This document shows, one piece after another, positions 2,453 to 44,325 of a stretch of 64,000 nucleotides of DNA. How positions within the stretch are numbered: the stretch's first letter is position 1; every line of letters starts with the position of its first letter. Source of the DNA: a virus. Where the stretch lies: IMG/VR virus record IMGVR_UViG_3300027792_000010, one strand, 5' to 3'. Under the pieces are notes generated by a model, which was given only the letters and a program-made list of their open reading frames with translations, was not told the DNA's origin and searched no databases. The position numbers and the translations under genes are program-made.

Positions 2453-2537
2453 CTATATGTCTGTTTATTACTCTTAGCTAATCCTTAAAACTATATAATA
2501 ATAAACTTCTTATTGAGAGTTCTATATTAATAAGTTA

Positions 2538-2608
2538 TGCCCCTAATTGGTCTCGAACCAATGACTCCTGTTTTAGAGACAGTTGTTTTACCACTAAACT
2601 ATAAGGGC
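2538..2608 (-). tRNA. Amber suppressor tRNA (anticodon CTA)
   Basis: Acceptor GCCCTTA/TAGGGGC, D stem GTTT/AAAC, anticodon arm ACTGT-CTCTAAA-ACAGG, T arm ATTGG-TTCGAGA-CCAAT, A73. Confidence 0.88.
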
Positions 2609-2614
2609 ACATAA

Positions 2615-4651: not shown

Positions 4652-5638
4652 TTATAAGTTATTATCCAAATAGCTCATCCAAAATATTCTAGCTTTATTG
4701 GATATAAACGATCCCATCTTTTTAGGATCTATACCATTTTTAATAATGGTATCCTGTTCTTCCTTCATTACATCACTATATACCCACCTTATGTATTCTC
4801 CGGTGGTAGATTTATCCAGAGGATTCCCAAGTTCTTTCATTTTGTCGATGCCTTGCTGCATCCTATTTTCAGTTACAGCATATTCAACAAACTCTTTTAC
4901 ATTTTCTACCTCTTCGGTGTCGATAGAGGCAAGTTTCTTAACTTTACTATTCTGATGCTTCTCACCTTTCACCTTAAAGATATATCTTTTGGTATCATCT
5001 ATATATTCCCAAACTATTCCTTCCCCCAAACCACCTATCCCAAAGTATTTACCCACAGGGCATTCTTCTTCTACTTTTATAGTAAGCTCTACTAGTTTAT
5101 TCTGAGCTATTTCTGGCTTATTGAAGTCTATATCCAGTTCATAGTTCTCAAACTGAAGAATATTGAATATCTTTTTATCCTCATTCTTAAGATGCTTGAA
5201 TTGCTCTATAGGCTTATAGACATCATCTATTCTAATTGCAAAAATTACCCACATGACAGGTAGTTTACTTATAGCTACACATTTTTGTATGCCAGAACCA
5301 CACCACTCTCCATAGATAGCACAACTGTCATTAAATTCTATACCTTCAAAAATCTTGTCTATGTCTCTATTCGTCATGGTAAGCATAAAACGGTAATTAT
5401 CAGATTCTATGCTCAACAACCTATCTTTACTTTGATATTCATAATGTCCATCTTTATATTTAACAATGGCTGAGTTTGTGCCGTGAAGTTTTATGGTCCC
5501 ACGGAACTTTAGAATAGGATAATCAGTCTCATGCCTATAGACAGGAGCACCTGTTTTATCCTCACCTTTATAATCATGGTGAGATTTAACTGCTCTGATA
5601 ACTTCTCTGAATTGTCCTATATCGGTAAATTTTTTCAT
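4652..5638 (-). CDS. RNA ligase, Rnl2 family
   Basis: Motif I 'TIKLHGTN', III 'IYGEWCG', IV 'GEGIVW', V 'FKVKGEKH'. Confidence 0.88.
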   Translation of the reverse strand: MKKFTDIGQFREVIRAVKSHHDYKGEDKTGAPVYRHETDYPILKFRGTIKLHGTNSAIVKYKDGHYEYQSKDRLLSIESDNYRFMLTMTNRDIDKIFEGIEFNDSCAIYGEWCGSGIQKCVAISKLPVMWVIFAIRIDDVYKPIEQFKHLKNEDKKIFNILQFENYELDIDFNKPEIAQNKLVELTIKVEEECPVGKYFGIGGLGEGIVWEYIDDTKRYIFKVKGEKHQNSKVKKLASIDTEEVENVKEFVEYAVTENRMQQGIDKMKELGNPLDKSTTGEYIRWVYSDVMKEEQDTIIKNGIDPKKMGSFISNKARIFWMSYLDNNL

Positions 5639-8482: not shown

Positions 8483-9424
8483 TTATTCAAAGTGAATACG
8501 TTTGATTGCATCTACAAACATACTTGATACATCGATTGTTTGAATGAACTCCTCTGAGTAATCTATTCCTGGTCTCCAAACTGTATTTGTAACATGTACT
8601 TTATTTATTGGGGATCTCTTCATATCCCATATAGCATCCTTAGTTAGTATTCCGTGTATAGCACAAGCATGAATTTCTATCGCTCCATTTGACTTAAGAA
8701 CTTCTGCAGCCTTTATCATGGACTTACCCGAGGCTATCTCGTCATCAATAATAATGCATATTCTACCTTTAACATTTCCAACTAGACTTGTAATTTGAGG
8801 ATTCTCCGTATCATCAACACGAATTTTACTCATGTATGCTACGGGAAGCTGACATAGCTCAGCGTACTCTGTAACCATTTTAGAGCTACCAGAGTCCAGG
8901 GCAACTAAAGTGGTCTTGTTGAAGGATACCTCTTTCTTAAGGTATTGATAGATTATCTCTTTCGGTACAAGATGATCTGTAGGAATCCTAAAAAATCCCT
9001 GAGTTTGCGGAGAATGTAAATTCATGAACATTGCACGGCTGGCACCTGCGGTTTGAAGAAGATCCGCCAGAAGACGAGCAGTGATAGATGTTCTGGACTC
9101 CCCCCGTTTGTCTGACCTGCAGTACGGATAATAAGGAAGAACGACTGTGATACGTCCGGCGCTTGCGTGCTTGAGAGTATCGATCATTATGAGCAGTTCC
9201 ATTATTCGTTCATTCTGATTAGGATAATTAGGCTGTATGATAAAGATATCATCACCGCGAACAGACTCTTCCACCTTAAATTTGATGTTGTCATTAGAAA
9301 ATATCAAAGAAGTTGTTTTCAATCTGGGAAGATAACTTTCTGTCACCAAATATTCTAACAATTTCGATTCAATCATATTATATAAGGGAAGTTGCTCACA
9401 TCCTGTCATGATGCGAAGTCTCAT
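8483..9424 (-). CDS. prs: Ribose-phosphate pyrophosphokinase family protein
   Basis: 'IKFKVEESVRGDDIFII', 'PYYPYCRSDK', 'LHSPQTQGFF', PRTase loop 'IIIDDEIASGKS'. Confidence 0.93.
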   Translation of the reverse strand: MRLRIMTGCEQLPLYNMIESKLLEYLVTESYLPRLKTTSLIFSNDNIKFKVEESVRGDDIFIIQPNYPNQNERIMELLIMIDTLKHASAGRITVVLPYYPYCRSDKRGESRTSITARLLADLLQTAGASRAMFMNLHSPQTQGFFRIPTDHLVPKEIIYQYLKKEVSFNKTTLVALDSGSSKMVTEYAELCQLPVAYMSKIRVDDTENPQITSLVGNVKGRICIIIDDEIASGKSMIKAAEVLKSNGAIEIHACAIHGILTKDAIWDMKRSPINKVHVTNTVWRPGIDYSEEFIQTIDVSSMFVDAIKRIHFE

Positions 9425-9438
9425 GCCTACCTCCTATT

Positions 9439-10410
9439 TCAATTAACTCTAAAAAGGTTGTCTCCTGATCCAGGCGAAACTTCACATCCTGAATTTTTTT
9501 CACTTGCACTATTAGACCGATTATTTGTTACATCAGTAAGCTTTTCTTCTGGTTTATTAGATTCAGTTTTCTTTTCATCATCTACATGGTTCTGTATACT
9601 GATCAGAATATCTTCTACTTCATAGACTATATTTTGAAACTTTGGAGTTCTTTTCAATTCCGCACTTCTATCACAGGGCAAATCAACGGTCATCTTTTGT
9701 ACAATCTTTCCTGGATTTGCCCTCATAAAGAATATTTCATCCCCGAGGTATACAGCCTCTGAAATGTCGTGCGTAACAAATATAATCGTTGTGCGTATCT
9801 TTGACCAAATTTCACATAACAAATCTTGCATTTTTAAGCGAGTATTCACATCTAGAGCGCCGAAAGGTTCATCCATCAGAAGTATCTCAGGTGCTGAAAC
9901 TAAGCTACGGGCAATAGCTACACGCTGAAGCTGACCACCAGACAATGTGGGGTATTTAGCATATTTACTTTCATGTCCCTCCAGACCTACTAACTTAATC
10001 ATCTCCATAGCTTTTTCATGACGTTCTTTTTTTGGTACCCCTTTGAACTTAAGCCCAAGGGCTACGTTGTCGAGCACACTAAGCCAGGGAAATGAACTAT
10101 ACTGCTGGAACACCATTCCTACTTTGATGCTCTTTTCGATAGTTTTTCCACTAATGAGCACTTCTCCCGACGTAGGTTTTTGCAATCCTGATATATATCT
10201 GAGTAGAGTAGATTTACCAGATCCTGATACGCCTAATATAACTACGAACTTGCCTTTTTCGGAGTTATCCTCTATAAGCAGGTTGAGATCTTGTATAATG
10301 CTGGCACTGCTACCATTATACCTCTGAGATATATCCTTAAGTTCTATAATATCGTGGGCATTTGTATTCGTAAAAATAACATTATCATTGTACATACTAT
10401 ACCTCTTCAT
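9439..10410 (-). CDS. ABC transporter ATP-binding subunit (TauB/NitT/SsuB type)
   Basis: Walker A GVSGSGKS, signature LSGGQLQR, Walker B LLMDEPFGALD, 'FVTHDISEA'. Confidence 0.95.
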   Translation of the reverse strand: MKRYSMYNDNVIFTNTNAHDIIELKDISQRYNGSSASIIQDLNLLIEDNSEKGKFVVILGVSGSGKSTLLRYISGLQKPTSGEVLISGKTIEKSIKVGMVFQQYSSFPWLSVLDNVALGLKFKGVPKKERHEKAMEMIKLVGLEGHESKYAKYPTLSGGQLQRVAIARSLVSAPEILLMDEPFGALDVNTRLKMQDLLCEIWSKIRTTIIFVTHDISEAVYLGDEIFFMRANPGKIVQKMTVDLPCDRSAELKRTPKFQNIVYEVEDILISIQNHVDDEKKTESNKPEEKLTDVTNNRSNSASEKNSGCEVSPGSGDNLFRVN

Positions 10411-10648
10411 CGGTAGGGTATAAAAGTGTAAAAGTTTTAGCAGTTTTTTTAGCAGTTTTTAAAGCTATAAGAATTTTATCTACAGACTCTATTACTTGAA
10501 TTGTATCTCTATTTGTTAATATTGTCGTATACCCATGCCCCTCTGATATGTAGTCTATTTTATCTATAGGTATAATAACCCTTAATCCTTTATCTATTTT
10601 ACCTGTAATAAGTCTTGAGCAAATAAGAAAACCAGAATTTTTACCCAC
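10397..10648 (-). CDS. Small hypothetical protein (weak FlbD-like resemblance)
   Basis: 'IPIDKIDYI...TTILTNRDTIQVIESVDKIL' pattern; recalled resemblance only. Confidence 0.4.
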   Translation of the reverse strand: MGKNSGFLICSRLITGKIDKGLRVIIPIDKIDYISEGHGYTTILTNRDTIQVIESVDKILIALKTAKKTAKTFTLLYPTDEEV

Positions 10649-10659
10649 TTAGTCACCTC

Positions 10660-11469
10660 TCAAATATATTTGTAAGGGAATAGTTTTTTGTCCAACCACA
10701 TAAAGATCCTATCCTGCACAAACCCAATCAAAACTATCATGATCAGGACAGCAAACACTTTGTCGATACGACTCTGACGGGCAGCTGTATAGGCTAATGC
10801 CCCGATACCACCTGACCTATTTACTAGTTCAGCTACAATGATGTATGTCCAGGAAATCGCTACAAGCACTCTAATGTCATCTGATATTTTGGCGAATACT
10901 GAGGGAAAGAAAACACTGAAAATCATCTGCCACCTATTAGCTCCGAGAGTTTTAGCAGTTTGTTGATGAACAACTTCTACTTCATCTATCCTTTGAACAA
11001 CTACTGGAAGCATATAGACTATGATACCGAAAGCCAAGAACTGAACCTTCATATTAGTATCGATACCGAACCATGCAATAAAAACACCAACCACAGCGGT
11101 AAGCGGTATGAATCTGGAAGCACTGATATATCTACTGAAGAGACTACGGAAGAAAGGAAACAATCCGATAGGAAAACCTATCAGGACGGCTATTATTACT
11201 GCTTCTACATATCCTAAGATATTAAGTTTGATAGAAAACAGAGTATTTGTGAATATACTATCTTTAATATACAATTCTTTGAAAGAAGTTATTACCATCC
11301 ACGGCGAAGGAAGCAAGGACTCAGGTATGAGCTTGAGGGATGTTATGATACCCCATATACCCAACAGAACTACAAATCCTGCTATTTCGATAATAAGCAT
11401 TGTTTTCTTGGGGAGTGCTCCACGAATTTCAAACAGATTATCAAGATCTTTCATATAAGTATTCTCCAA
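10660..11469 (-). CDS. ABC transporter permease (TauC/SsuC type)
   Basis: Multiple TM segments, 'LLPSPWMV', EAA-loop 'AKTLGANRWQMIFSV', 'SWTYIIVAELV'. Confidence 0.93.
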   Translation of the reverse strand: MENTYMKDLDNLFEIRGALPKKTMLIIEIAGFVVLLGIWGIITSLKLIPESLLPSPWMVITSFKELYIKDSIFTNTLFSIKLNILGYVEAVIIAVLIGFPIGLFPFFRSLFSRYISASRFIPLTAVVGVFIAWFGIDTNMKVQFLAFGIIVYMLPVVVQRIDEVEVVHQQTAKTLGANRWQMIFSVFFPSVFAKISDDIRVLVAISWTYIIVAELVNRSGGIGALAYTAARQSRIDKVFAVLIMIVLIGFVQDRIFMWLDKKLFPYKYI

Positions 11470-11473
11470 GGGC

Positions 11474-11671
11474 TCAAATTTTGTCTGATAAAGTAATTAC
11501 AGTTACCTCTGAACCTTTTTCTACCTCAGAAGAAACAGCCTGTCCATAATTATAATATTGAGTACCATACTTAGTAATTAAATTTCTCTTATGTTCTATT
11601 GTAGCAGAAGCATAAGATTCTTTTATAACTTCTTCCCCATCTATTGTGATTGAAACTTGTACTACTGACAT
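11474..11671 (-). CDS. Hypothetical protein
   Basis: ORF track, in the operon, with SD. Confidence 0.5.
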   Translation of the reverse strand: MSVVQVSITIDGEEVIKESYASATIEHKRNLITKYGTQYYNYGQAVSSEVEKGSEVTVITLSDKI

Positions 11672-11758
11672 TATTTACCTCAATTTTTTATAAGATATAC
11701 GGTGAGCTAAAGAAAAGCTCCCCAAGCAAAAGTGCATGGGGAGTTTCCAAGGTGGGAC

Positions 11759-13324
11759 TTACTCCCCGAGCAACTCAAACGCTGTATTACGATTCTGCGC
11801 TCGTCCATCCTCAGTATCATTGGTGGCAACAGGCTTATCAGGGCCATTACCTACAACAATGAACCTATTTTTGTCGAAACCCCATCGACTAGTGAGATAC
11901 CCTACAACTGATTTGGCACGGTTCAGGGAAAGAGTTTTATTCATGGTATAGTCACCTGTGTTATCTGTATTGCCTTCCACACGGATACGACACTTTGCAA
12001 AGCTCTTGGCTATATCTGCAAATTCCTTATCAATTTTGTAACGGCACTCATCACATAGTACGTAGGCACCAGTTTCGAAGTTTACGGTAACACGCTTAGT
12101 TGCAAATGCTTCCTTACTTGCTATTGCCGCAGTGGGCTTGGTGAAAGTAGCCGACGCTTCTGCAACTTGTTCTGGCCCGGTTAAGTTAAGGATACTTTTT
12201 AGAATTATTGTGCTAGACACGGTGCGCCATGATGGAACAGTAGACTGGTCGGGCAGTGATTCCTTGAATACTAAGGAAATCTGCGGGATGGCAGTCGCTG
12301 TTTTTTCGTATAAGTCTTCGCCCTTGATGCCATTATAATCACCATTGAGGTTGAAGAACTGAACATTGTCTCCGTAGGTGCAGAGACGGGCATTCAAGAT
12401 ATTCATGACTTCCTCTGGCTGATTAAATGCTGTAGACATTAGTTTCTGAGCAGAAGCGCGTACTGCATCAGAGCTATTGATTTCGGCAGCTGCTTTGAAC
12501 CAACCTTCGGCAAATTTTCTCAAATCATCCTGTCTAGTCAGAAGGACGGAATTTTTGACATAGAAAATATCAGCAATGGTATTGGACGCATCTTTTGTGC
12601 TTCGAAGGATTTTTGAACCTGCGACACTTTTGATACAATCCTGGTCATCAGGTGACCATACAACAGCGGCATCCACTTTACCTGCCTTGAAATAGGAGGC
12701 GGCATCCAAAGCTGTAGGCGCTTTGATTACTTCGATGTCACTATACTTCAGACCGCCTGCAGAGAGTACCCACAAGAGGAGTGTCTGAGAGGGAGTACCA
12801 AAAGCAACAGCAATGCGCTTACCCTTAAGGTCTTGAACATTATTGATACCAGAGGCTACGACGATGACATCACCACCACGGGACCAGTCGATCTGCATGA
12901 AGACTTTTGGTTCTAAATTAACTATGTTCGGGAAGAATGTTGATAGCACATCAGCGGTATTGCATACCACATCGTACTGATCGGCTTTCCAACCGTCGAG
13001 AATGTTCTGGAAGTCGTCATTAATACTGAACTCTACTTCCACACCATCCTGAGTGAATCGGGATGTCGAAGAGGGTTTCAGACCTCCATTGTAGTATACG
13101 CCAGGGGCGAATCCTACCCAGGTATTCAAGCATACCCGGAGTGCTTTGGACTTGCTGCCGCCAAACAGACCTTTGGACGGGGTTTCCGAAGCTGCTTTTG
13201 GTGCAGGTTTTGGAATCCAACCTTGTTTGTTAGCGAACTGGTAGCCGAAGAAACCACCGCCTATTACAAGGGCAATAATGAGAATCTTCGCAAACGGGGT
13301 AAGTTGAGGGGCTTTGTTAGCCAT
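11759..13324 (-). CDS. ABC substrate-binding protein (NMT1/THI5/SsuA-like) fused to a C-terminal OmpA-like peptidoglycan-binding domain
   Basis: TM anchor; 'DWSRGGDVIV...VQDLKGKRIAV'; OmpA 'VNFETG...IRVEGNTDNTG..LSLNRAKSV...G.GPDKPVATN...RAQNR'. Confidence 0.9.
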   Translation of the reverse strand: MANKAPQLTPFAKILIIALVIGGGFFGYQFANKQGWIPKPAPKAASETPSKGLFGGSKSKALRVCLNTWVGFAPGVYYNGGLKPSSTSRFTQDGVEVEFSINDDFQNILDGWKADQYDVVCNTADVLSTFFPNIVNLEPKVFMQIDWSRGGDVIVVASGINNVQDLKGKRIAVAFGTPSQTLLLWVLSAGGLKYSDIEVIKAPTALDAASYFKAGKVDAAVVWSPDDQDCIKSVAGSKILRSTKDASNTIADIFYVKNSVLLTRQDDLRKFAEGWFKAAAEINSSDAVRASAQKLMSTAFNQPEEVMNILNARLCTYGDNVQFFNLNGDYNGIKGEDLYEKTATAIPQISLVFKESLPDQSTVPSWRTVSSTIILKSILNLTGPEQVAEASATFTKPTAAIASKEAFATKRVTVNFETGAYVLCDECRYKIDKEFADIAKSFAKCRIRVEGNTDNTGDYTMNKTLSLNRAKSVVGYLTSRWGFDKNRFIVVGNGPDKPVATNDTEDGRAQNRNTAFELLGE

Positions 13325-21625: not shown

Positions 21626-22852
21626 TTAATTAAAAAATGAGCCCACCCAATCAGAGGATTCTTTTTTATACGCCTGAGTAGATAGTGCTTGAAAAATCAT
21701 ACCTAAGTTAGACCAATCAACAAGATTATCCGATAATATTTCTTTTAGTGTTTTTACTTCTACATATGTTCTTTCTGTATCCTCTTCTACACCGTGAATA
21801 TTTTTATCATTTTTCATCTCATTAATTTCTTTATCAGTAAGTTCTACTTTATATAGAAAAGACTTGTGACTGCTTAGAGTTGCTACTAATTGTCTACTTT
21901 CTAGTTTTTCTAACCTATTTTTATTTATTTTTAATCCTGTCTCTTCTTCTAATTCATGTACTATAACTTCTGACATAGATTCTGTACTATCTTTTGATGA
22001 TCCGCCAGGTATCTCATATACATAACCTTCTTTATTAGACACAGTGGTTCTAAATTCTTTAATAAGTAATATTTCTGTACTAAAAATATCATAACTAGGT
22101 TTGTAGGCTACTAAAGAAGATATATTTGTTCTTGAAAAAACAAACTCATTTGTTTTTTGTCTTTTTTCTTTAGTAATATAGATGTCTGCGTGTAATATGT
22201 AGCTAAGTAGTAATTCCTTATTTTTGCCTACTTTAAAAACCCACTCTAAGTAAGCACTTTCAAGTCTGTTTCCTCCTGCTTTAAGGTCACTATACCAGCT
22301 TTTAAATTGATTAGATTTCCATACTTGTATAGGTATAAACCTTTCTCCATCTTTCCTATAACTACCATCACCTATATAGTTTAAAACAGAATTTATAGTT
22401 TCTTCTAAAGTATTTTCTATTGGTACCTTGTATTTTTTAGCCTTATAGTCTAGGTACCTCATTTTATAAGCATCTTTAGGATAACCTAAAATAACCTTAC
22501 CAGATTTCATCCACTCTCCAAATTCTACATTAGTAGTAAAACCTGGAAGTTTTTCATTACGAGGTACCCAAAATAGTATACAATCAGCCATGTTAAGACA
22601 AGTCTGCTCCCATTCTATTTGGTCTTTATAATCTCCTTTAAAAGGTTCTGGTATAAAAACTACTCCATCATAGCCTTTTCTATTTAATATATTACAGGTT
22701 TCTTTTCTCCAATCCGTAATATCTTCTATACTGTCTCTGCTTGAGGGGCCTGCTAAAAAAATTGACTTGCTCCAGCTTTCTGGTATTTTGTCTTTTGTTG
22801 TTATTATTTTCATACTATCTCCTTTATAATAGTTTCTGATAAAGAACTTCAT
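21626..22852 (-). CDS. Nucleoside 2-deoxyribosyltransferase-like domain fused to a Nudix hydrolase
   Basis: 'SIFLAGP...WRKE...QIEWEQTCLNMADCILFWVP...TTNVEFG'; Nudix box 'YEIPGGS...HELEEETG'. Confidence 0.85.
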   Translation of the reverse strand: MKFFIRNYYKGDSMKIITTKDKIPESWSKSIFLAGPSSRDSIEDITDWRKETCNILNRKGYDGVVFIPEPFKGDYKDQIEWEQTCLNMADCILFWVPRNEKLPGFTTNVEFGEWMKSGKVILGYPKDAYKMRYLDYKAKKYKVPIENTLEETINSVLNYIGDGSYRKDGERFIPIQVWKSNQFKSWYSDLKAGGNRLESAYLEWVFKVGKNKELLLSYILHADIYITKEKRQKTNEFVFSRTNISSLVAYKPSYDIFSTEILLIKEFRTTVSNKEGYVYEIPGGSSKDSTESMSEVIVHELEEETGLKINKNRLEKLESRQLVATLSSHKSFLYKVELTDKEINEMKNDKNIHGVEEDTERTYVEVKTLKEILSDNLVDWSNLGMIFQALSTQAYKKESSDWVGSFFN

Positions 22853-23438
22853 TATCTTTACAATAATTTTTTAGTTTATCTAACCATGCCTGAGTTTTGC
22901 ATTTAAACATTCTCGGCATCTCAAACTTCTTTTCTTTCTTTATTTTACATACCAACCCTTCAAAGGTGATCCCAGGCAACTCACTCTTACGGACCTGCTG
23001 CTCTATCTCACGATTAAAGTTACCCCGGAATAGCAGCTTAGCTATATCCAAATGCCCGAACAGCCTAAGGAAATCATCAGGGCCTAGTATCCCTTGTTTA
23101 TAGGGGCTTACATCTATTAAATTCATTATGTGGGGCTCGTTAACATGCTGACCTGCAAAAGAGTTCGGTCCCCAAAATTCAAAGAAAGCCACAGCACTTT
23201 CATATCTCTGCTTAGTGAAGATATCGCTGAGATCTTTTTCCCAGTTACCTTTTATCAAAGGTATAGCTTCGCCCAGATGAGGATGATCCTCACCGAGGAG
23301 TTGGTGACGAGTCCCGAACTTGTAGAATGCTTTTTTCTTGGACCACTCTACACGGATATTGGACCCATCCAACTTATCAAAACCATAAACCAAGGTACCG
23401 TGCTGTTGGTCACGACTTAGCGATGGATATTCCTTCAT
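22824..23438 (-). CDS. RNA ligase-like nucleotidyltransferase
   Basis: 'FDKLDGSN', 'FFEFWG', 'FEGLVCK', 'FKCKT' ligase motifs. Confidence 0.8.
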   Translation of the reverse strand: MKEYPSLSRDQQHGTLVYGFDKLDGSNIRVEWSKKKAFYKFGTRHQLLGEDHPHLGEAIPLIKGNWEKDLSDIFTKQRYESAVAFFEFWGPNSFAGQHVNEPHIMNLIDVSPYKQGILGPDDFLRLFGHLDIAKLLFRGNFNREIEQQVRKSELPGITFEGLVCKIKKEKKFEMPRMFKCKTQAWLDKLKNYCKDNEVLYQKLL

Positions 23439-25267: not shown

Positions 25268-26608
25268 TCAGTTGATACTGTAGTTTGCCCTAATATACAA
25301 CAATGCTTGTTCTTTTGTTGTAACAGTACCTTCCAATTGTTCAGTGTCTACTGCTTCAAGAATCTCTTTGAATTTAGGTCCGGGTTTGAAACCCATAGCA
25401 ATAAGGTCATTACCATCTACCAATCTATCTGGAAGGATGACCTTACCTCCTGGTTCCTCTGCAAAAGAATCCATAGCTTCTTTAACAAACTGCAAATTAT
25501 CTAATCCTCCATGAGAAGACAAACAATCAGCCTTGTGAAGTTGCAAGTGCTCTTCAAATCTATCCATAGCTATAAATCTCTTAAGCGTGGACTTCCTCAT
25601 GTCCCGTATTACACAGAACTTCATATGGTTCTCAATTAGGGAACAAACCCTATCTATAAAATAATTTGAAAACTTCAACCTGGTTAATAGCTCTCTGGCT
25701 ATATGAGAGCCTTTAATATCATGTCCATTGAACACTAACCGACCTTTCCTATCATCCCAAGCTTTAGTAGTGGGCTTTCCCACATCATGCAACAAAGTAG
25801 CCCACAAAAGCTCTGGGGAGGCTTCTTTTGGGAGGTAATTCAAGGTGAGACAGGTGTGTTTACCGACGCACCCTTCTGGATGAAAGTCCACAGGCTGCTC
25901 ACACCCAAACATATCTTGAATTTCTGGCAGGATATGCTTTAGTATACCAAAATGTTCCAAATCCTTAAGAGCTTCTCCTCTGACTTTACTTTGTTCCAAT
26001 ATTTTTGTCAACTCATCTGCTATTCTCTCTACAGATATTTTCTTGATAAGGATACTATTATCCATTATAGCTTTCTCTGTATCGGAGTCCATAGAGAACC
26101 CCAAACGGTGTTTGAACCTTATGGCCCTCATTAATCTTAAGTGGTCTTCCAATATTCTCTCTTCAGGATCACCTATGAACCTAATTAATTTATCTTCTAT
26201 ATCTTTTCTACCGCCTACGTAATCATAGTACTCCTCAAGGGTAGGGTCATAAAAGATACCATTGATAGTGAGGTCTCTCCTGTTAGCATCCTCTTCCATA
26301 GTAGAAAACTCAACACTTGAAGGATGTCTACCATCCAAGTAAATACCTGCGTCTCTTCTAAAAGTAGCGACCTCAAATTGAATCCCATCAAGTATAACAA
26401 TTATTACGCCAAAAGCTTTCCCTACTTCTATATTATTAGGGAACAGTTCCTGAACTTGGTGAGGAAAAGCAGAGGTAGCTATATCATAATCATGCGGCAT
26501 AACACCCATAATTTGGTCACGATTGCAACCGCCAGCAAATACCGCTTGATATCCTGCGCTCTGTAGAATTTTAATAATACCTACAGCAAGTTCTTTTTGC
26601 TTATCCAT
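25268..26608 (-). CDS. cca: CCA-adding enzyme / class II tRNA nucleotidyltransferase with HD domain
   Basis: 'FAGGCNRD...DYDIAT', 'RRDLTING', 'EDHLRLMRAIRF', HD 'LLHDVGKP'. Confidence 0.9.
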   Translation of the reverse strand: MDKQKELAVGIIKILQSAGYQAVFAGGCNRDQIMGVMPHDYDIATSAFPHQVQELFPNNIEVGKAFGVIIVILDGIQFEVATFRRDAGIYLDGRHPSSVEFSTMEEDANRRDLTINGIFYDPTLEEYYDYVGGRKDIEDKLIRFIGDPEERILEDHLRLMRAIRFKHRLGFSMDSDTEKAIMDNSILIKKISVERIADELTKILEQSKVRGEALKDLEHFGILKHILPEIQDMFGCEQPVDFHPEGCVGKHTCLTLNYLPKEASPELLWATLLHDVGKPTTKAWDDRKGRLVFNGHDIKGSHIARELLTRLKFSNYFIDRVCSLIENHMKFCVIRDMRKSTLKRFIAMDRFEEHLQLHKADCLSSHGGLDNLQFVKEAMDSFAEEPGGKVILPDRLVDGNDLIAMGFKPGPKFKEILEAVDTEQLEGTVTTKEQALLYIRANYSIN

Positions 26609-33466: not shown

Positions 33467-34582
33467 TTAAACTTGGATAAATCCAACTTCATAAGGTTTG
33501 TAACGGGCACCGTACAGCCCCGTAAGAAATCGAGTCAATATGTTCACAGCTCCGATCACGTCGGCGTTGCCTATGTGACCACATTTCAGGCACCGGAACA
33601 CTTGTCCTACTCGATTCCCCCTATTGACATGACCACAGCTTGGGCATGTTTGGCTGGTATAATAAGGAGCTACAGTGCGAAAACTAACACGGTTAGTCTC
33701 GCAAGCTTGCTCAAGCCTTTTTAACCAATACCTATACGCCCAAGTGCCGATAGAACGCCGCATATTTTTACTCAAGCGGCGTTTGAGTTTACTTTTGAAA
33801 TTCATGTTCTTAAGAGCTTCAACCACGACTAAATCGATGTGTTTGAACTCTTTGACAATTTCTTGTACAACTTCATCTATTCTTTGTTTAAAAGCTCTAC
33901 GAGCCTGTTTTTGCCCATTAGAGCCATGAGTGCAGCGTTTGATACGTTCAATACAGGCTTCTGTATCTAAACCAAATTGCTGGCCATTATTAATAGAAGC
34001 AAGTGCTTTTATCCCTGTGTCAATACCGATAGCATTTACACCTTCTTTTTTCTTGCCAGCATCTATTTCGAAAGAGAACTGAACATAGTTATCTGTGAGG
34101 ATGTAGGAATTAAGGCGTTTTCCCTGAAGAGCCAATTTATTATAATGTTTATGAAACTTTATAGGTATATCAAGGATTGTATCTTCACCAATAGACTGGA
34201 GATGGAGCCAAGCATCAAATTCTTTAGAGTCCTCTTTTTCCTGAAGATCAGCTATAGTACAGGAAACATAAGCTCTTTTGCCTTTATGAATGGGCATAGA
34301 GATTTTCCAAGGCTTATCTTTCCATCGTTCTTTTACGGCAGTAATCATATCTATAGCTTCTCTGGCTGCGACCTTTCGGAGCCTAGCGGTGAGCCACGTA
34401 CCATGAGGGATGTCAACAATTTCTTTTAAGAGTTCTGATTTAGAAGGAGTTCCATTCTTCCAGAAGTAATTGATAAAAGTGTTACAGACCCGACCATACT
34501 CAGCGAGGACCTTACGAAGCTCGGAGAGTTTGGAGGCTGTAGCAAATTTAAGACTACATTTAGAAGAACGAATCAGTTTCAT
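33467..34582 (-). mobile_element. tnpB: TnpB RNA-guided nuclease (solo, no TnpA)
   Basis: RuvC-I 'IGIDTG', RuvC-II 'VVEAL', Zn ribbon 'TSQTCPSCG...FRCLKCG', RuvC-III 'NADVIGAVNI'. Confidence 0.93.
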
Positions 34583-35325: not shown

Positions 35326-35607
35326 CTATATTTCCACATCCTCTATCAAAGTAGCAAAACAAGGGGTACCATCTCCTACCCACGATCCTATTACGTTAAA
35401 TTCAAAATACTCCTCGGCTTCCTCAGAGGTCATCTTATCCCTCTCCATAAATATTTCTAAACATTTTTTTCTACTAAGGAGGATAAGAGGGGATTGTCCG
35501 AAACGTTCTACCATACCTATGATAGCATCATCTAAATCTGTAGGGTATAAAGCTTCATCATTAATATCACCCATATACTCTAAGAAATCTTTGATCTTAT
35601 TTTCCAT
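35326..35607 (-). CDS. Hypothetical phage protein
   Basis: 'LDDAIIG...MTSEEAEEYFEFNVIGSWVGDGTP' widespread phage family. Confidence 0.7.
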   Translation of the reverse strand: MENKIKDFLEYMGDINDEALYPTDLDDAIIGMVERFGQSPLILLSRKKCLEIFMERDKMTSEEAEEYFEFNVIGSWVGDGTPCFATLIEDVEI

Positions 35608-35629
35608 AATGACCCCCTAATAAAAAAAA

Positions 35630-35732
35630 TACGCCCGGAGTGACTCGAACACTCGACCCATAGCTTCTCTGACAGTCCTACTAACGACTGCCCGAGAAGG
35701 CTATTGCTCTAATCCAACTGAGCTACGGACGC
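35630..35732 (-). tRNA. tRNA-Arg(TCT) with a 28-nt insertion in the anticodon loop
   Basis: Acceptor GCGTCCG/CGGGCGT, normal D and T arms; deleting 35667-35694 restores ATAGC-CTTCTAA-GCTAT. Confidence 0.85.
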
Positions 35733-35738
35733 ATAATT

Positions 35739-35813
35739 TGGAGCGAGGTGCGGGAGTCAAACCCGCCAGATTCACCTTGGAAGGGTGACGCATAATCGAT
35801 CTGCCTACCCCGC
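35739..35813 (-). tRNA. tRNA-Gly(TCC)
   Basis: Acceptor GCGGGGT/ACCTCGC, U73, CCA, arm TCACC-CTTCCAA-GGTGA; T loop TTTGACT. Confidence 0.9.
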
Positions 35814-35853
35814 ATAATTATAATATACTATTTGGTATTCTAACTTTAAAGTA

Positions 35854-35936
35854 TGGAGCCTGGAGAGGGAGTTTCACCCTCTGGTCGCTTTATCCCCGAG
35901 CGAGTGGGGACCCTTAGCTTCAAGAGCTATCCCGGC
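35854..35936 (-). ncRNA. tRNA-like RNA with CCA end and a pseudoknot-capable hairpin replacing the anticodon arm
   Basis: Acceptor GCCGGGA/TCCAGGC + T + CCA; T-like arm GAGGG-TGAAACT-CCCTC; D-like TAGCT/AGCTA; TCCCC-ACTCGCTC-GGGGA whose loop TCGCT can pair with downstream AGCGA. Confidence 0.55.
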
Positions 35937-36209
35937 ATAACTTTCCATCAAAAACTCATTAAACTTTCTCTCCTGCATAGTAAGCTTATCTTTTTTACTC
36001 CAGTTTGCTCTGCGGGGATTTTTACACATAATACAGGAGCAAAGTTTGGTGGTATCCCTTCTTATTTGAGCTTCCTTCTCTATGAAGTCTGCTCTTTCTT
36101 TTTCTGAGGTTAGCCACTTAGCAGTACTGCCGTAATAACCTAATGCACGTTTTTTCCCCAACTTCTTACCGATGAGGAAGCGTTCACGCTTATCTTTTGG
36201 ATGTGACAT
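35874..36209 (-). CDS. Small basic Cys-containing protein; 3' end overlaps the tRNA-like element
   Basis: 'RRDTTKLCSCIMCKNPRR'; ORF track. Confidence 0.6.
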   Translation of the reverse strand: MSHPKDKRERFLIGKKLGKKRALGYYGSTAKWLTSEKERADFIEKEAQIRRDTTKLCSCIMCKNPRRANWSKKDKLTMQERKFNEFLMESYAGIALEAKGPHSLGDKATRG

Positions 36210-36716: not shown

Positions 36717-36785
36717 TCAGGTTGGCTTTAGCCTTCCTTCTCCTTCTCTACCCTCTATACCTATGGTAGCTGGGATGTAAAACAT
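36717..36785 (-). CDS. Attenuator leader peptide 3, MFYIPATIGIEGREGEGRLKPT (Ile/Gly/Glu/Arg sensor)
   Basis: SD AAAGGA; 11 consecutive codons ATA GGT ATA GAG GGT AGA GAA GGA GAA GGA AGG; upstream of tRNA-Glu, CAT, Gly x2, Arg(TCT). Confidence 0.9.
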   Translation of the reverse strand: MFYIPATIGIEGREGEGRLKPT

Positions 36786-40651: not shown

Positions 40652-41207
40652 TTTCTCTTATAGGTTTGACCTGTAGATAAGTCGTTTTGCAACCTATCTT
40701 TGTTATGTACCTTCCGTATACATTAGAATCATCTATCAACATATCTATCTTATGCTCTTTACACATCTGTGCTTTAGTCTCATCCCAAACCTCCTGGTCC
40801 ATCCAAGGATTACCTTTTTCATCAAAATGTACTCTTACATCTTTTTTATTTACATGGAAATCCGTTATAGAGAGGAGATGGTCCCACTCCATACCAATTT
40901 CACGTAGCTTCTCTATGAGCTTCGGGGTTATCTTTGCTCCTGTGATGATATAAACGGTATGCCCTCTGCTTCTCAATCTTATGCTGAACTTCGAGAAGAA
41001 CTTAGGTTTGGCATCGATTACTCCATGAATATCGAGTCCTATCTTGAGAGGTTCTACAGACTCTTCTATTATACCGGGTTCCATACCTATATCCCATATT
41101 CTTTTCTTTGTAACTGCAAATTCTTTTTCTAAACAATAGATTTCGAAAAGGGCATTTGCTGCGTTAGCGTCACTTAAAGCTTTTTTAATTATATCAAAGT
41201 TTGCCAT
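40617..41207 (-). CDS. HAD-superfamily (5'-nucleotidase-like) protein
   Basis: 'IGLDIHGVI', 'YIITG', 'KIDMLIDD'. Confidence 0.72.
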   Translation of the reverse strand: MANFDIIKKALSDANAANALFEIYCLEKEFAVTKKRIWDIGMEPGIIEESVEPLKIGLDIHGVIDAKPKFFSKFSIRLRSRGHTVYIITGAKITPKLIEKLREIGMEWDHLLSITDFHVNKKDVRVHFDEKGNPWMDQEVWDETKAQMCKEHKIDMLIDDSNVYGRYITKIGCKTTYLQVKPIRESDTNGRYKSIP

Positions 41208-43116
41208 TCAGAGCCTGCTCTTTCAGATTGTAGTACCCACGAGTCAGATACCAACAATTTAAACTCTCACGTAAATCGAACCCAAAAGCTCTGCGAGTCA
41301 CAGCGAGTACTGGAGGGGCTTGGATACGCTTAGCTACTGCCATGCCTTTAAACAGCTTATACCAGTGTTCTATATCATCTGTGAAAGCTTTTGCTGTAGG
41401 GAATAGCTTGTATACATCCATCCCTTCAGGAACTTTCAACTTATTATTGATTGTACCATTCAGATACCAGTTCAAATTGTCTTCTGGAGTCTTCCGATAC
41501 CAGGACTCTACCCAAGTGTAGAATAGTCTGCTGTGATACCAGTATACGAGAGGATCTCCCTTACCATCATCTACGCTCTGGTTATTCGACAGTTCTGCTG
41601 AAGCAACTACAGTGAAAGCCTCTTCAGGGATAACTGGATAAGTCTTGTTCAAATATTCTCCCAGTTCGTATACCATAGGCTTTCTAAGGTCACCAAGAGC
41701 TGCGAGGAATCCCGCTACATCCCCGTAAAGGGTGGCATAACCTACGGTACCCTCATCCTTATTCCCGTTATTCGTAAAAACACCACCCCAAGCGCTTGAA
41801 AGTGCCGAAAGGATTCGGCTCGAACGATCTCGGGCCTGTACATTCTCCATATGTGTAGGAGTGAGGTTCAGGGTTTTTTTCTCCCACAAAGAGTCACAGT
41901 CAGAATGATAAGGTATAACATAATCAGTATGCATCATTGTTATCTTTTTGAAACGTTTTAGCTCTAAACCATCAATCTGTTTTTTAGTTAGATTTACAGA
42001 ATCTTCTATAGGAATGCTGGTATAGTAGCATTCTATATTCTTTGCTAATTTTCTTGCTATGCTTATCGTAGTCTTTGAATTGTACTTCGAAGGCATGTTA
42101 ACCAGAAGAAGATTCTCCGGTCCTACCACCTGAGCATATAGCGAGGCTGCTACACATGAGTCTATTCCACCCGAGGCACCGATAACAACTCTCTTAGTCC
42201 CGCAGGCTTCCAGATATTTGCCTATGCCATACTTGAGAGCTTCTGCTACTTCGGCTATATCAGATTCGGGAAGGTTACACACCTCTCCAGGAAACATTTG
42301 CTTTGAATAAGTACACCACTCAACATACATCATATGCTCTTTGAACATAGGTGCTTGAGCAATGATTTTACCAGTCTCATCATACACTACCGAAGAACCA
42401 TCAAAAGTATAAATAGTTTTTCCATTATTCTGTATGCCTACAGCATTCACATATATGATAGGCATACCCAAGTATTTGGCATGTCTTTCACCAAATACCC
42501 TGTTTCTGCTGTTGTTTTTACCTATGGTATAAGGCGAACAGCTGATGTTTATCATCAAATCTGCTTCATTCTCTCTGTAGCATTCCATAGGGTTGATGGG
42601 ATAATCGTCATCCCACCCATCTTCACAGATAGTAAGGCCAACTTTGGTGTCCTTGATATTTTGTGGGGTAAAGTATTTCCTTGTTTTAATATCCGACACT
42701 TTAACCTCATATCCTAAAGCAGGTCTGAAATGACGAGGTTCTTCAAACTCTCGATAGTTAGGGAGAAGGGTCTTTATGTAGTATCGAACTGTCCTGTTTG
42801 TTGCACATATTAAAACATTACGTATGATAGATCTTCCATCTGTGTGCTTGATACCCCAATCTACATCTATACTCCCAAAGATGATTGTAATATCATCCGA
42901 AAGAGCTATTACATCATTGTTGTAATCCATACAGTCTTTGAGGAAAGATTCTTCTTCCCACATATCTCCAAGGAGATATCCAGGTATCATTAGTTCTGGG
43001 AATACTACAATATCTGCGTGATTGGCTTTAGCCGTCGATACATACTCCATGACTTTTTTGAAGTTTTTGGAGGGATCTGCAGGGATAATTTCTACTTGTG
43101 CTAATGCTATTTTCAT
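41194..43116 (-). CDS. nadE: Glutamine-dependent NAD+ synthetase (nitrilase plus synthetase domains)
   Basis: 'VVFPEL', 'KTLLPNYREFEEPRHF', 'ICEDGW', 'SGGIDS', 'NVQARDR', 'GYATLYGD', 'SAEL'. Confidence 0.95.
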   Translation of the reverse strand: MKIALAQVEIIPADPSKNFKKVMEYVSTAKANHADIVVFPELMIPGYLLGDMWEEESFLKDCMDYNNDVIALSDDITIIFGSIDVDWGIKHTDGRSIIRNVLICATNRTVRYYIKTLLPNYREFEEPRHFRPALGYEVKVSDIKTRKYFTPQNIKDTKVGLTICEDGWDDDYPINPMECYRENEADLMINISCSPYTIGKNNSRNRVFGERHAKYLGMPIIYVNAVGIQNNGKTIYTFDGSSVVYDETGKIIAQAPMFKEHMMYVEWCTYSKQMFPGEVCNLPESDIAEVAEALKYGIGKYLEACGTKRVVIGASGGIDSCVAASLYAQVVGPENLLLVNMPSKYNSKTTISIARKLAKNIECYYTSIPIEDSVNLTKKQIDGLELKRFKKITMMHTDYVIPYHSDCDSLWEKKTLNLTPTHMENVQARDRSSRILSALSSAWGGVFTNNGNKDEGTVGYATLYGDVAGFLAALGDLRKPMVYELGEYLNKTYPVIPEEAFTVVASAELSNNQSVDDGKGDPLVYWYHSRLFYTWVESWYRKTPEDNLNWYLNGTINNKLKVPEGMDVYKLFPTAKAFTDDIEHWYKLFKGMAVAKRIQAPPVLAVTRRAFGFDLRESLNCWYLTRGYYNLKEQALNGKL

Positions 43117-43122
43117 AAATAC

Positions 43123-44325
43123 TTACTCCGCTATGTGCTTTGCGTAGTTAAGGAATATAAGGTCTTTACACTGTGCCTTCATAGGATCATCGCTGAGTTT
43201 GCAGACAGGACGACCATTGGCTCTGACTATTTTTATGATCTGATTTAAGGCTTTATGTTCTGGTATAGATGGTATATGATTCGAAAGAAAAGTTCCAATA
43301 CCATGCGACACATTTAGGATATGACCAAACTTAGAACTCAGGTCAAAAGCCTTGGTAAAAGTCAAGTTGTCCGAGAATAGCAGAGTTTTATCAGTAGGAT
43401 CAATACCCTCTCTGCTGTAGGCTCTGAGACGCTTCTCGGCCCACTGAAAAGGGTCTCCTGAGTCGTGTCTTTGACCTGTATACTGTATCATAAGCTCTTT
43501 TGTGAAATCTCGGTCCCATTTATTGCTGCCGAGGGTGTCTGTTAGGGCAATACCAAGCCACCCACGGTAGAATTCGATCCAGTCCTCAAGGGCTTTCTTC
43601 TGAGAATCTTCAAGATGGTATAGAGCTTGATAAAACATGGGAAATTCATGAGCCAAGGTACCCACAGCCTTCAATCCGTGAGTTTTAGCAAAAAGCATAT
43701 TAGATGTGCCAACGAGTTGAGTAGGAAAATATCCTTTCAGTTGTTTAACCATCCACCCCTGAAATTCTTGGCATAGTCTGCGTCGTGTCCCGAATTCTGA
43801 GAAAAGAAAGCGCACTTTAGGATTCTGCTCAAGAACCTTCAGGAAATCTTCTATCTTCTTGGATAAGTCTGCTTTTGCCGTATCTACAATTTTTTGAAAC
43901 CCCTGTTCATACTTCTTTCTGAAATAAAGCTCCGAGATGGTATACATCATAGGCATCTCCCAGAGCGAAACTTCTTCTATAGGCCCATCGAAGCATATTT
44001 CAATGCCTGGATTTGTATCGATCTTTTTGATTTGTACTTGTCGGGGATCAAAATGAAACTTTGCAAGAAAATTCACGAGGTAGTCTTGAGTTACCTTCGT
44101 ATTCTCGAATAGCCACTTCTGTTCATCCCTCTGCAGGGTGACATCCGACATAGCTTCAATTTGTTCACACAGGTCATTGTAGATAGGTCGAAGGTCTACC
44201 GAGGTGTCACGACACTTGTAGGCATAGGTAGCGGGGGTCCCACGGAACTTATCCCAGAAGATACATCCCATGTGAAATTTATACACATCATCATCGAGGT
44301 GACTTGTGAAGATCGCATTATTCAT
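43123..44325 (-). CDS. pncB: Nicotinate phosphoribosyltransferase
   Basis: 'LDDDVYKFHM', 'EFGTRRR', 'GTSN', 'GTLAHE', 'ALTDT', 'RHDSGDP', 'KLSDDPMK'. Confidence 0.93.
   Translation of the reverse strand: MNNAIFTSHLDDDVYKFHMGCIFWDKFRGTPATYAYKCRDTSVDLRPIYNDLCEQIEAMSDVTLQRDEQKWLFENTKVTQDYLVNFLAKFHFDPRQVQIKKIDTNPGIEICFDGPIEEVSLWEMPMMYTISELYFRKKYEQGFQKIVDTAKADLSKKIEDFLKVLEQNPKVRFLFSEFGTRRRLCQEFQGWMVKQLKGYFPTQLVGTSNMLFAKTHGLKAVGTLAHEFPMFYQALYHLEDSQKKALEDWIEFYRGWLGIALTDTLGSNKWDRDFTKELMIQYTGQRHDSGDPFQWAEKRLRAYSREGIDPTDKTLLFSDNLTFTKAFDLSSKFGHILNVSHGIGTFLSNHIPSIPEHKALNQIIKIVRANGRPVCKLSDDPMKAQCKDLIFLNYAKHIAE

Follow-up and report, generated by a model that had tools for sequence, protein, structure and literature searches.

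According to the textbook view, the introns of bacterial tRNAs are ribozymes of the self-splicing group I type, and the splicing of tRNAs by protein catalysts is a trait of archaea and eukaryotes. The group I introns that occur in the anticodon loops of bacterial and phage tRNAs, e.g. tRNA-Leu(UAA) and tRNA-Arg(CCU), splice themselves and measure about 200 nt or more; we know of no splicing endonuclease in bacteria. The intervening sequences of bacterial 23S rRNA (in Salmonella and others) are excised by RNase III at the base of a helix. A 2-bp staggered cut yielding 2-nt 3' overhangs is the hallmark of RNase III products, and the 3'-OH and 5'-phosphate left by this enzyme are ends that an ATP-dependent RNA ligase joins without healing. 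Ligases of the Rnl2 type are known as nick-sealing enzymes of duplex RNA rather than of anticodon loops, and to our knowledge the natural substrate of Rnl2 has remained unknown since its discovery in T4. The protein-spliced introns of archaeal and eukaryal tRNAs rely on a bulge-helix-bulge motif and lie mostly at position 37/38 (PMC4090602). In phage T4, tRNA-Lys is repaired by Pnkp and Rnl1 after cleavage by PrrC (PMC3400036, PMC7824862). The only phage tRNA introns that we found in print are the 'enigmatic' introns of the Lak megaphages, which are 79-114 nt long and contain a tRNA-like T arm (Devoto et al. 2019, PMC6784885, Table S6). Our full-text literature search returned no published account of tRNA splicing by hairpin cutting and rejoining in bacteria or their viruses, and hairpin tRNA introns are absent from both a 2021 survey and a 2026 review of jumbo phages.

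The window analysed here, i.e. the whole stretch of 64,000 nucleotides from IMG/VR virus record IMGVR_UViG_3300027792_000010, belongs to a contig of about 190-200 kb assembled from a JGI metagenome and has the gene content of a large phage of a Gram-negative bacterium. It carries 17 tRNA genes (ARAGORN, introns allowed) and also encodes an RlaP nucleotidyltransferase, a class II ribonucleotide reductase and a GH108 lysin with a peptidoglycan-binding domain. An earlier note, made from the sequence alone, had described one of these tRNA genes as a tRNA-Arg(UCU) gene with a 28-nt hairpin inserted between positions 36 and 37, and this description proved right in every detail that could be checked (Table 1). 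The tRNA model RF00005 matches the gene over all 71 model positions with 51.3 bits (E 4e-10), above the gathering threshold of 29 bits, which makes the gene a member of the family, and the Rfam alignment displays a single 31-nt insertion, located in the anticodon loop. The insert itself reads CGGGCAGTCGTTAGTAGGACTGTCAGAG (window 35694-35667, minus strand), as first reported, and occurs once in the whole window. Its placement, T36|A37 in the gene, is unique: when the gene is aligned with its syntenic uninterrupted counterpart in L185 and with nine uninterrupted viral tRNA-Arg(TCT) genes, only an insert between U36 and A37 restores the loop CUUCUAA. In these nine IMG/VR genes, the 28 nt around the anticodon (AGAGCAATAGCCTTCTAAGCTATGGGTC) are identical to those of the window. 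Once the insert is deleted in silico, ARAGORN calls tRNA-Arg(tct), with the anticodon UCU in a 7-nt loop, as befits a tRNA-Arg(UCU). The D loop, AGUUGGAUUA, has an A at position 20 as read from the sequence, and A20 is an Arg identity element.

Table 1. Features of the interrupted tRNA-Arg(UCU) gene and of its surroundings in the window (i, insert position).
Feature	Position	Strand	Basis
Interrupted tRNA-Arg(UCU) gene, 103 nt	35732-35630	minus	Rfam RF00005, ARAGORN with introns, ortholog alignment
5' exon, tRNA nucleotides 1-36 (38 nt of the gene), ending in CUUCU with anticodon UCU	35695-35732	minus	alignment with uninterrupted L185 and L006
28-nt hairpin insert (putative mini-intron) between nucleotides 36 and 37	35667-35694	minus	folds, alignment, in-silico removal
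3' exon, tRNA nucleotides 37-73	35630-35666	minus	alignment; in-silico insert removal gives tRNA-Arg(tct)
Predicted extended helix: pairs 33-38, 34-37, 35-i28, 36-i27, i1-i26, G.A mismatch, 7 bp, 8-nt loop	35665-35698	minus	folds and pair counts
T-run after the acceptor/T-arm hairpin; terminator-like operon end	35620-35629	minus	sequence scan
tRNA-Gly(UCC), uninterrupted in the window	35739-35813	minus	tRNA search; alignment to relatives
Promoter-like site TTTAAA-17-TATATT before the Gly(UCC)-Arg(UCU) pair	35822-35850	minus	consensus scan only
22-codon leader ORF MFYIPATIGIEGREGEGRLKPT upstream of the tRNA block, with AGA and AGG	36717-36785	minus	read from sequence
Promoter-like site ahead of the leader ORF	36899-36871	minus	consensus scan
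CCA-adding enzyme with HD domain	25268-26608	minus	profile search
Rnl2-family ATP-dependent RNA ligase, 328 aa, candidate sealing enzyme	4652-5638	minus	PF09414 E 5e-10; phrog_548 E 4e-55, full length
Short ligase-like ORF, 204 aa, nucleotidyltransferase domain only	22824-23438	minus	PF09414 23.2 bits, below cut-off; phrog_548 E 2.5e-12

Note that the gene at 35732-35630 is missed by ARAGORN in its default bacterial mode. With introns allowed, the program places a 28-nt intron two bases off and returns 'Leu(tag)', a call that we rejected because the tRNA body has a 5-nt variable region. Since standard bacterial tRNA finders miss or misname such genes, phage tRNA inventories and codon-usage arguments are biased.

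The interrupted gene is the last of a block that opens with a promoter-like site and a leader ORF. Both AGA and AGG, which the earlier note had assigned to this leader, are read in ORF 36785-36717. In the 32 long ORFs of the window, AGA (198) and AGG (85) represent 62% of the 459 Arg codons, and the interrupted tRNA-Arg(UCU) is the only tRNA of the window able to read them. The gene ends with GGGCGUA, at once followed by the T-run (35620-35632), and does not encode CCA; the tRNA-Arg genes of the relatives described below all encode it (GGGCGTACCATTTT; e.g. L182:293-305) and have a C-G pair where the window's acceptor stem has a U4.G69 wobble. A CCA-adding enzyme is consequently needed for this tRNA, and the loss of the encoded CCA may be harmless, as the phage encodes such an enzyme.

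Several other features surround the tRNA pair. A cloverleaf-like element ending in UCCA (35854-35936, minus strand) lies downstream of a small ORF and upstream of tRNA-Gly(UCC), and overlaps the last ~20 codons of a 111-aa ORF (35874-36209, minus strand). It has no tRNA model match, and its fold is no better than those of shuffled sequences (z -0.5); it is kept in four related phages (L185:1485-1566, L188 about 1662-1745 and L199 about 740-822 among them), with a fully paired acceptor-like stem in L185. The ORF it overlaps belongs to a small basic family of about 88 aa (MSHPKDRRERF...RRDTTKLCSCxMCGNPRR...LTMQEKKF, with invariant His and Cys), which has no Pfam family and occurs inside arrays of tRNA genes at all of the 10 IMG/VR phage loci (L189-L198); the window ORF runs about 22 codons further than the family, into the tRNA-like element. 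Downstream of the tRNA-Arg gene, a 93-aa ORF (35326-35607, minus strand) belongs to phrog_13182, a large phage family, and its closest members (L021-L024) lie within tRNA arrays, flanked by tRNA-His and tRNA-Leu. Two TnpB/Cas12f-like ORFs (OrfB_IS605 and TNB domains) are present at 2-1201 and 33467-34582, both on the minus strand; one of them is about 1 kb downstream of the tRNA block, and a Logan contig of the same phage stops just before the second ORF. Elsewhere in the window, the tRNA at 2537-2609 (minus strand) has the anticodon CUA (amber suppressor type; 'Pyl' according to ARAGORN); the ORFs are open under the standard code, and 3 of the 32 long ones end in TAG. Finally, the regions 8483-13324 and 41194-44325 encode a PRPP synthetase, an ABC-transporter ATPase and permease, a substrate-binding/OmpA fusion, an NAD synthase and a nicotinate phosphoribosyltransferase.

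In the predicted fold, the insert extends the anticodon stem and the anticodon is entirely base-paired, with the acceptor, D and T arms kept, in line with the earlier description of an extended stem masking the anticodon and of otherwise intact arms. The predicted arm consists of (i) the 5-bp anticodon stem followed by a bulged C32; (ii) the helix UUCUC/GAGAA, which corresponds to U33-A38, U34-A37, C35-G(i28), U36-A(i27) and C(i1)-G(i26); (iii) a G.A mismatch; and (iv) the seven pairs of GGCAGUC/GACUGUC, one of which is G.U, closed by an 8-nt loop. Altogether, the helix comprises 13 stacked positions, which together with the anticodon stem makes about 18 bp. The minimum free energy of the whole gene is -44.1 kcal/mol (z -4.6) and that of the arm alone -23.8 kcal/mol (z -5.9), 0 of 200 shuffled sequences being as stable in either case.

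This fold, together with the size of the insert, separates it from the described classes of introns. A bulge-helix-bulge intron has two 3-nt bulges and a 4-bp helix; here, where the earlier note had seen no clear one, there is no such motif, both junctions being inside a continuous helix, which is perfect over all 13 bp in the related phage L182. A Lak-type intron would be about 80-115 nt long, with a tRNA-like arm and a GGTTCGAATCC-type T loop, and the hairpins described here are 27-28 nt long. The 5' exon ends in U and the insert in G, as read from the sequence, which is reminiscent of group I splice sites; however, the Gly inserts described below end in G after C36, not after U. Moreover, as already pointed out in the note, 28 nt is too short for a group I intron (P3-P8 core, about 200 nt or more) and cannot accommodate a catalytic core, and the gene has no match at E up to 10 to any intron or small self-cleaving ribozyme of Rfam, its matches besides tRNA being two chance-level ones to unrelated sRNAs. 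A degenerate group I intron or a small self-cleaving ribozyme is thus extremely improbable.

The predicted shape of the insert does fit an RNase III cut site. In the folds of every member examined, the partner of nucleotide 34 is nucleotide 37, and the insert's last two bases are paired with nucleotides 35 and 36, so that the two junctions lie on opposite strands of one helix with an offset of 2 bp; this holds for the Arg and Gly genes and for the Leu and bacterial genes presented below. Cutting at both junctions would consequently leave 2-nt 3' overhangs, both on the tRNA body (C35, U36) and on the freed hairpin. If an RNase III processing site is taken to be about two turns of double-stranded helix in which the scissile bonds are staggered by 2 bp and 2-nt 3' overhangs result, this geometry is present in the predicted folds of the Arg, Gly, Leu and bacterial genes. 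The inserts are unrelated in sequence and constant in size, and the hypothetical cuts lie 9 and 11 stacked positions from the loop, with the 5-bp anticodon stem prolonging the duplex on their far side.

Relatives of the locus came from the two small ORFs on either side of the tRNA pair, whose homologs were looked up as exact proteins. Other searches were less productive: BLAST of the locus against 50,697 phage records gave no match, BLAST of the tRNA alone against phage DNA gave half-length matches only, and exact-pattern scans of IMG/VR for the insert, or for any 10-45-nt insert in tRNA-Arg, retrieved none. Homologs of the 93-aa ORF were found at 160 loci, mostly non-syntenic, and searches via a 420-aa protein and NadE brought nothing useful beyond G001, a 375-kb phage with an uninterrupted tRNA-Arg(TCT). 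The same phage has a weak tRNA match of 96 nt (36.8 bits; L017:1266-1361, G001:C1:92265-92360) in which the region following the D arm is oversized. A resemblance between the 5' arm of the insert and the 3' half of a cyanophage tRNA-Arg (GCAGTCGTTAGTAGG against GCAGTCGGTCGTAGG) was attributed to chance, the inserts of the relatives being less alike.

Three further phage lineages with the same gene order bear inserts, namely L182/L183, L188 and L199, in which one flanking protein is 82%, 73% and 70% identical to that of the window, respectively. In all three, tRNA-Arg(UCU) contains a 28-nt insert at the same site as in the window, and tRNA-Gly(UCC) contains a 27-nt insert with an unrelated sequence and an identical architecture. 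In a fourth syntenic lineage, L185/L186/L187, both the Arg and the Gly genes are devoid of insert. All the variants fold to the same shape (z -5.6 to -7.1). In the Arg hairpin, the i1:i26 pair is C-G in two of the three distinct genes and A-U in the other one, and two other positions show a single mismatch, in one sequence each; in the tRNA body, the window has U-A at anticodon-stem pair 28:42, where the other insert-bearing genes have C-G. In the three distinct Gly genes, the long helix is 100% paired, 4 of the 7 loop bases vary, and double changes affect the hairpin (A-U to G-C) as well as both the anticodon and T stems. With three distinct sequences per tRNA, 61 of 500 (Arg) and 17 of 500 (Gly) shuffle controls reach the observed covariation score. 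Conserved stems, free loops and a tRNA body that still undergoes compensation are the opposite of what random decay would produce, although the statistics are suggestive at best. The comparison of orthologous Arg(TCT) genes that the earlier note had proposed as a check thus indicates that the insert is kept with compensatory changes rather than decaying at random. As judged from these alignments, the insert is conserved under structural selection, with weak covariation statistics. The window hairpin is the least regular of the three Arg variants (one G.A, one G.U), and this irregularity, the U4.G69 wobble and the loss of CCA could reflect relaxed selection on the window copy.

The L188 operon, whose Gly and Arg genes are both insert-bearing, also includes an HNH_3 endonuclease gene (L188:375-920). 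A link between the inserts and protection from homing endonucleases is therefore possible.

The same design is found in other tRNAs and outside phages. A tRNA model search of ten related IMG/VR records revealed at least one further member among the matches listed: a distant phage, G002, whose homolog of the small protein is 53% identical to the window's, has a 110-nt tRNA-Leu(UAA) gene (locus L201) with a 28-nt hairpin of the same dimensions at 36|37. A single pattern scan of 185,579 species genomes for interrupted tRNA-Arg(UCU) retrieved mostly archaeal genes, as expected for bulge-helix-bulge introns, and also bacterial ones: three Treponema metagenome-assembled genomes, which are not mutually independent (28, 28 and 43 nt), a Chitinophagaceae one (27 nt) and a lake bin (28 nt). 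Ordinary chromosomal genes surround those of Treponema and Chitinophagaceae, namely V-type ATPase subunits, FlaA and RelA/SpoT in one case and a short-chain dehydrogenase and topoisomerase IB in the other. Two of the four bacterial carriers additionally have an Arg(UCU)-type loop free of insert, so that their interrupted copy need not be essential; the other two have no match to our restrictive pattern. The window insert is hence one member of a class of putative hairpin mini-introns that recurs in tRNA genes of phages and of some bacteria. A phage-like array on contigs binned as Deinococcales (L207:1000-5900 and L220) packs 22 tRNA genes into 5 kb; in it, an Arg(UCU)-type gene has a 36-nt insert of different shape and another gene a 154-nt insert.

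If the insert were a selfish or neutral palindromic piece of DNA, then the gene would be inactivated, or on its way to be, and the host tRNA-Arg(UCU) would suffice. Such an origin agrees with the presence of the insert in some relatives and its absence from others, with the mismatch, the wobble and the missing CCA of the window copy, and with the two TnpB-type elements, which point to active mobile DNA in the window. However, the Arg, Gly and Leu inserts, which share length, site and register, are unrelated in sequence and hence are not copies of one element, and compensatory substitutions have occurred in both the hairpin and the tRNA stems of the insert-bearing genes. Furthermore, the Rfam score is still 51 bits and the same design exists in bacterial chromosomal genes, so that we hold this explanation to be doubtful.

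Alternatively, the insert might never be removed, and the tRNA look-alike, with its long anticodon arm, might capture host anticodon nucleases or other factors that bind tRNA, as a decoy or sponge, or might have a regulatory function. Selection for hairpin pairing would be expected for such a structural role as well, the anticodon is fully masked, and jumbo phages have many counter-defence RNA genes (PMC7824862). Yet a perfect 7-nt loop results from exact removal in each of four tRNA species, a syntenic relative has uninterrupted orthologs at the same place, and the D, T and acceptor arms have been kept along with the Arg identity base A20. In addition, the window has no other reader of AGA and AGG, its most used Arg codons. 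Permanent retention of the insert in the RNA thus seems quite unlikely. Among the three readings put forward in the earlier note, the protein-spliced mini-intron is the one favoured by the comparative data (compensatory changes, recurrence and junction geometry); a caged pre-tRNA is compatible with it, as a possible purpose of the insert, and the decoy keeps the low probability just given. To that note, the present analysis adds the RNase III-type stagger and the relatives.

Removal of the insert by proteins would require enzymes that cut and rejoin the tRNA. The earlier note had counted two RNA ligases in the window: one is clear, and the second, a short ORF that falls below the Pfam cut-off, has a phrog_548 match. 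Neither has a PDB sequence match or an NCBIfam match. Besides the window, G002 and all four bacterial carriers encode a PF09414 ligase, compared with 20 of the 81 Treponema-family genomes sampled; two of the four carriers also have RtcB. We regard this co-occurrence as weak support, because such a ligase is a standard repair gene of jumbo phages and because 19 ligase-positive genomes of the Treponema family are devoid of insert. No RNase III gene was detected in the roughly 50 window ORFs scanned or in five related phage records, hence our assumption that the host enzyme is at work.

From these observations, we infer the removal of the insert itself, the enzymes responsible and the reason for its retention. 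Judging from junction geometry and gene co-occurrence, the most likely mechanism is that RNase III makes the cuts and an RNA ligase then reunites the halves. In the transcript, the insert would continue the anticodon stem over 13 stacked positions ending in a 7-8-nt loop, leaving the anticodon paired and unusable. A double-strand-specific endonuclease of the RNase III type, supplied by the host, would then cut both strands at the junctions, which face each other across the helix with a 2-bp offset and 3' overhangs, hence the choice of this enzyme; the cuts would leave U36-3'OH and 5'-phosphate-A37. The phage ATP-dependent Rnl2-family ligase would join the two halves without any end healing to give a 75-nt tRNA, to which the phage CCA-adding enzyme would finally supply CCA.

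Removal could also follow another route, with ends like those generated in classical tRNA splicing and anticodon-nuclease repair (PMC3400036); the CCA-adding enzyme with HD domain and the RlaP nucleotidyltransferase of the window, both linked to RNA repair, would fit in with this. On the other hand, a bulge-helix-bulge is not possible, as illustrated by the perfect L182 helix, the window ORFs scanned yielded neither a polynucleotide kinase-phosphatase nor an RtcB, RtcB is present in two of the four bacterial carriers versus four of four for the ATP-dependent ligase, and the constant 2-bp stagger would be left unexplained. This route therefore appears decidedly unlikely.

As for why the insert is kept under the RNase III-ligase mechanism, it might make tRNA maturation depend on phage enzymes, conceal the anticodon loop from anticodon nucleases or disrupt the DNA site targeted by a homing endonuclease. 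In conclusion, the joint reading that the 103-nt gene is a working tRNA-Arg(UCU) gene carrying a member of the 27-28-nt hairpin mini-intron class, and that this hairpin is cut out and the tRNA rejoined as proposed, has in our estimation about an even chance of being correct. More tentatively, bacteria and large phages might possess a protein-only form of tRNA splicing, in which host RNase III excises 27-28-nt hairpins and an Rnl2-family ligase rejoins the tRNA, and through which phages make the maturation of key tRNAs ligase-dependent or protect the anticodon loop, or the DNA encoding it, against nucleases of the host and of rivals. If true, this would add a third kind of tRNA intron, a hairpin of 28 nt whose precise excision is a prerequisite for decoding by a bacterial-type tRNA; RNase III would thereby gain a function in tRNA maturation, and phage Rnl2-type ligases could have found their long-missing natural substrate.

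Compared with known systems, the inserts share with group I introns their location in the anticodon loop of bacterial-type tRNAs and their sporadic distribution, but group I introns self-splice, whereas the window insert has 28 nt and no catalytic core. Like archaeal and eukaryal tRNA introns, they are short, adjacent to the anticodon and paired with anticodon-loop bases, and their proposed removal depends on proteins; they differ from them by the absence of bulges, by their position at 36/37 and by the bacterial host. The Lak introns are also non-ribozyme elements of phage tRNA anticodon loops, present or absent among relatives and with no known removal mechanism; they are 79-114 nt long with a T arm, instead of plain 27-28-nt hairpins that continue the anticodon stem. 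The intervening sequences of 23S rRNA are likewise extra stem-loops in a stable RNA gene, but the rRNA pieces stay unjoined, whereas a tRNA cut in its anticodon loop must be ligated to decode. Finally, T4 repair uses, and the mechanism proposed here would use, a phage ATP-dependent ligase acting on 3'-OH and 5'-phosphate ends in the anticodon loop; in T4, the break is host-inflicted damage that requires end healing and is sealed by Rnl1, whereas here it would be programmed, would need no healing and would be sealed by a ligase of the Rnl2 family.
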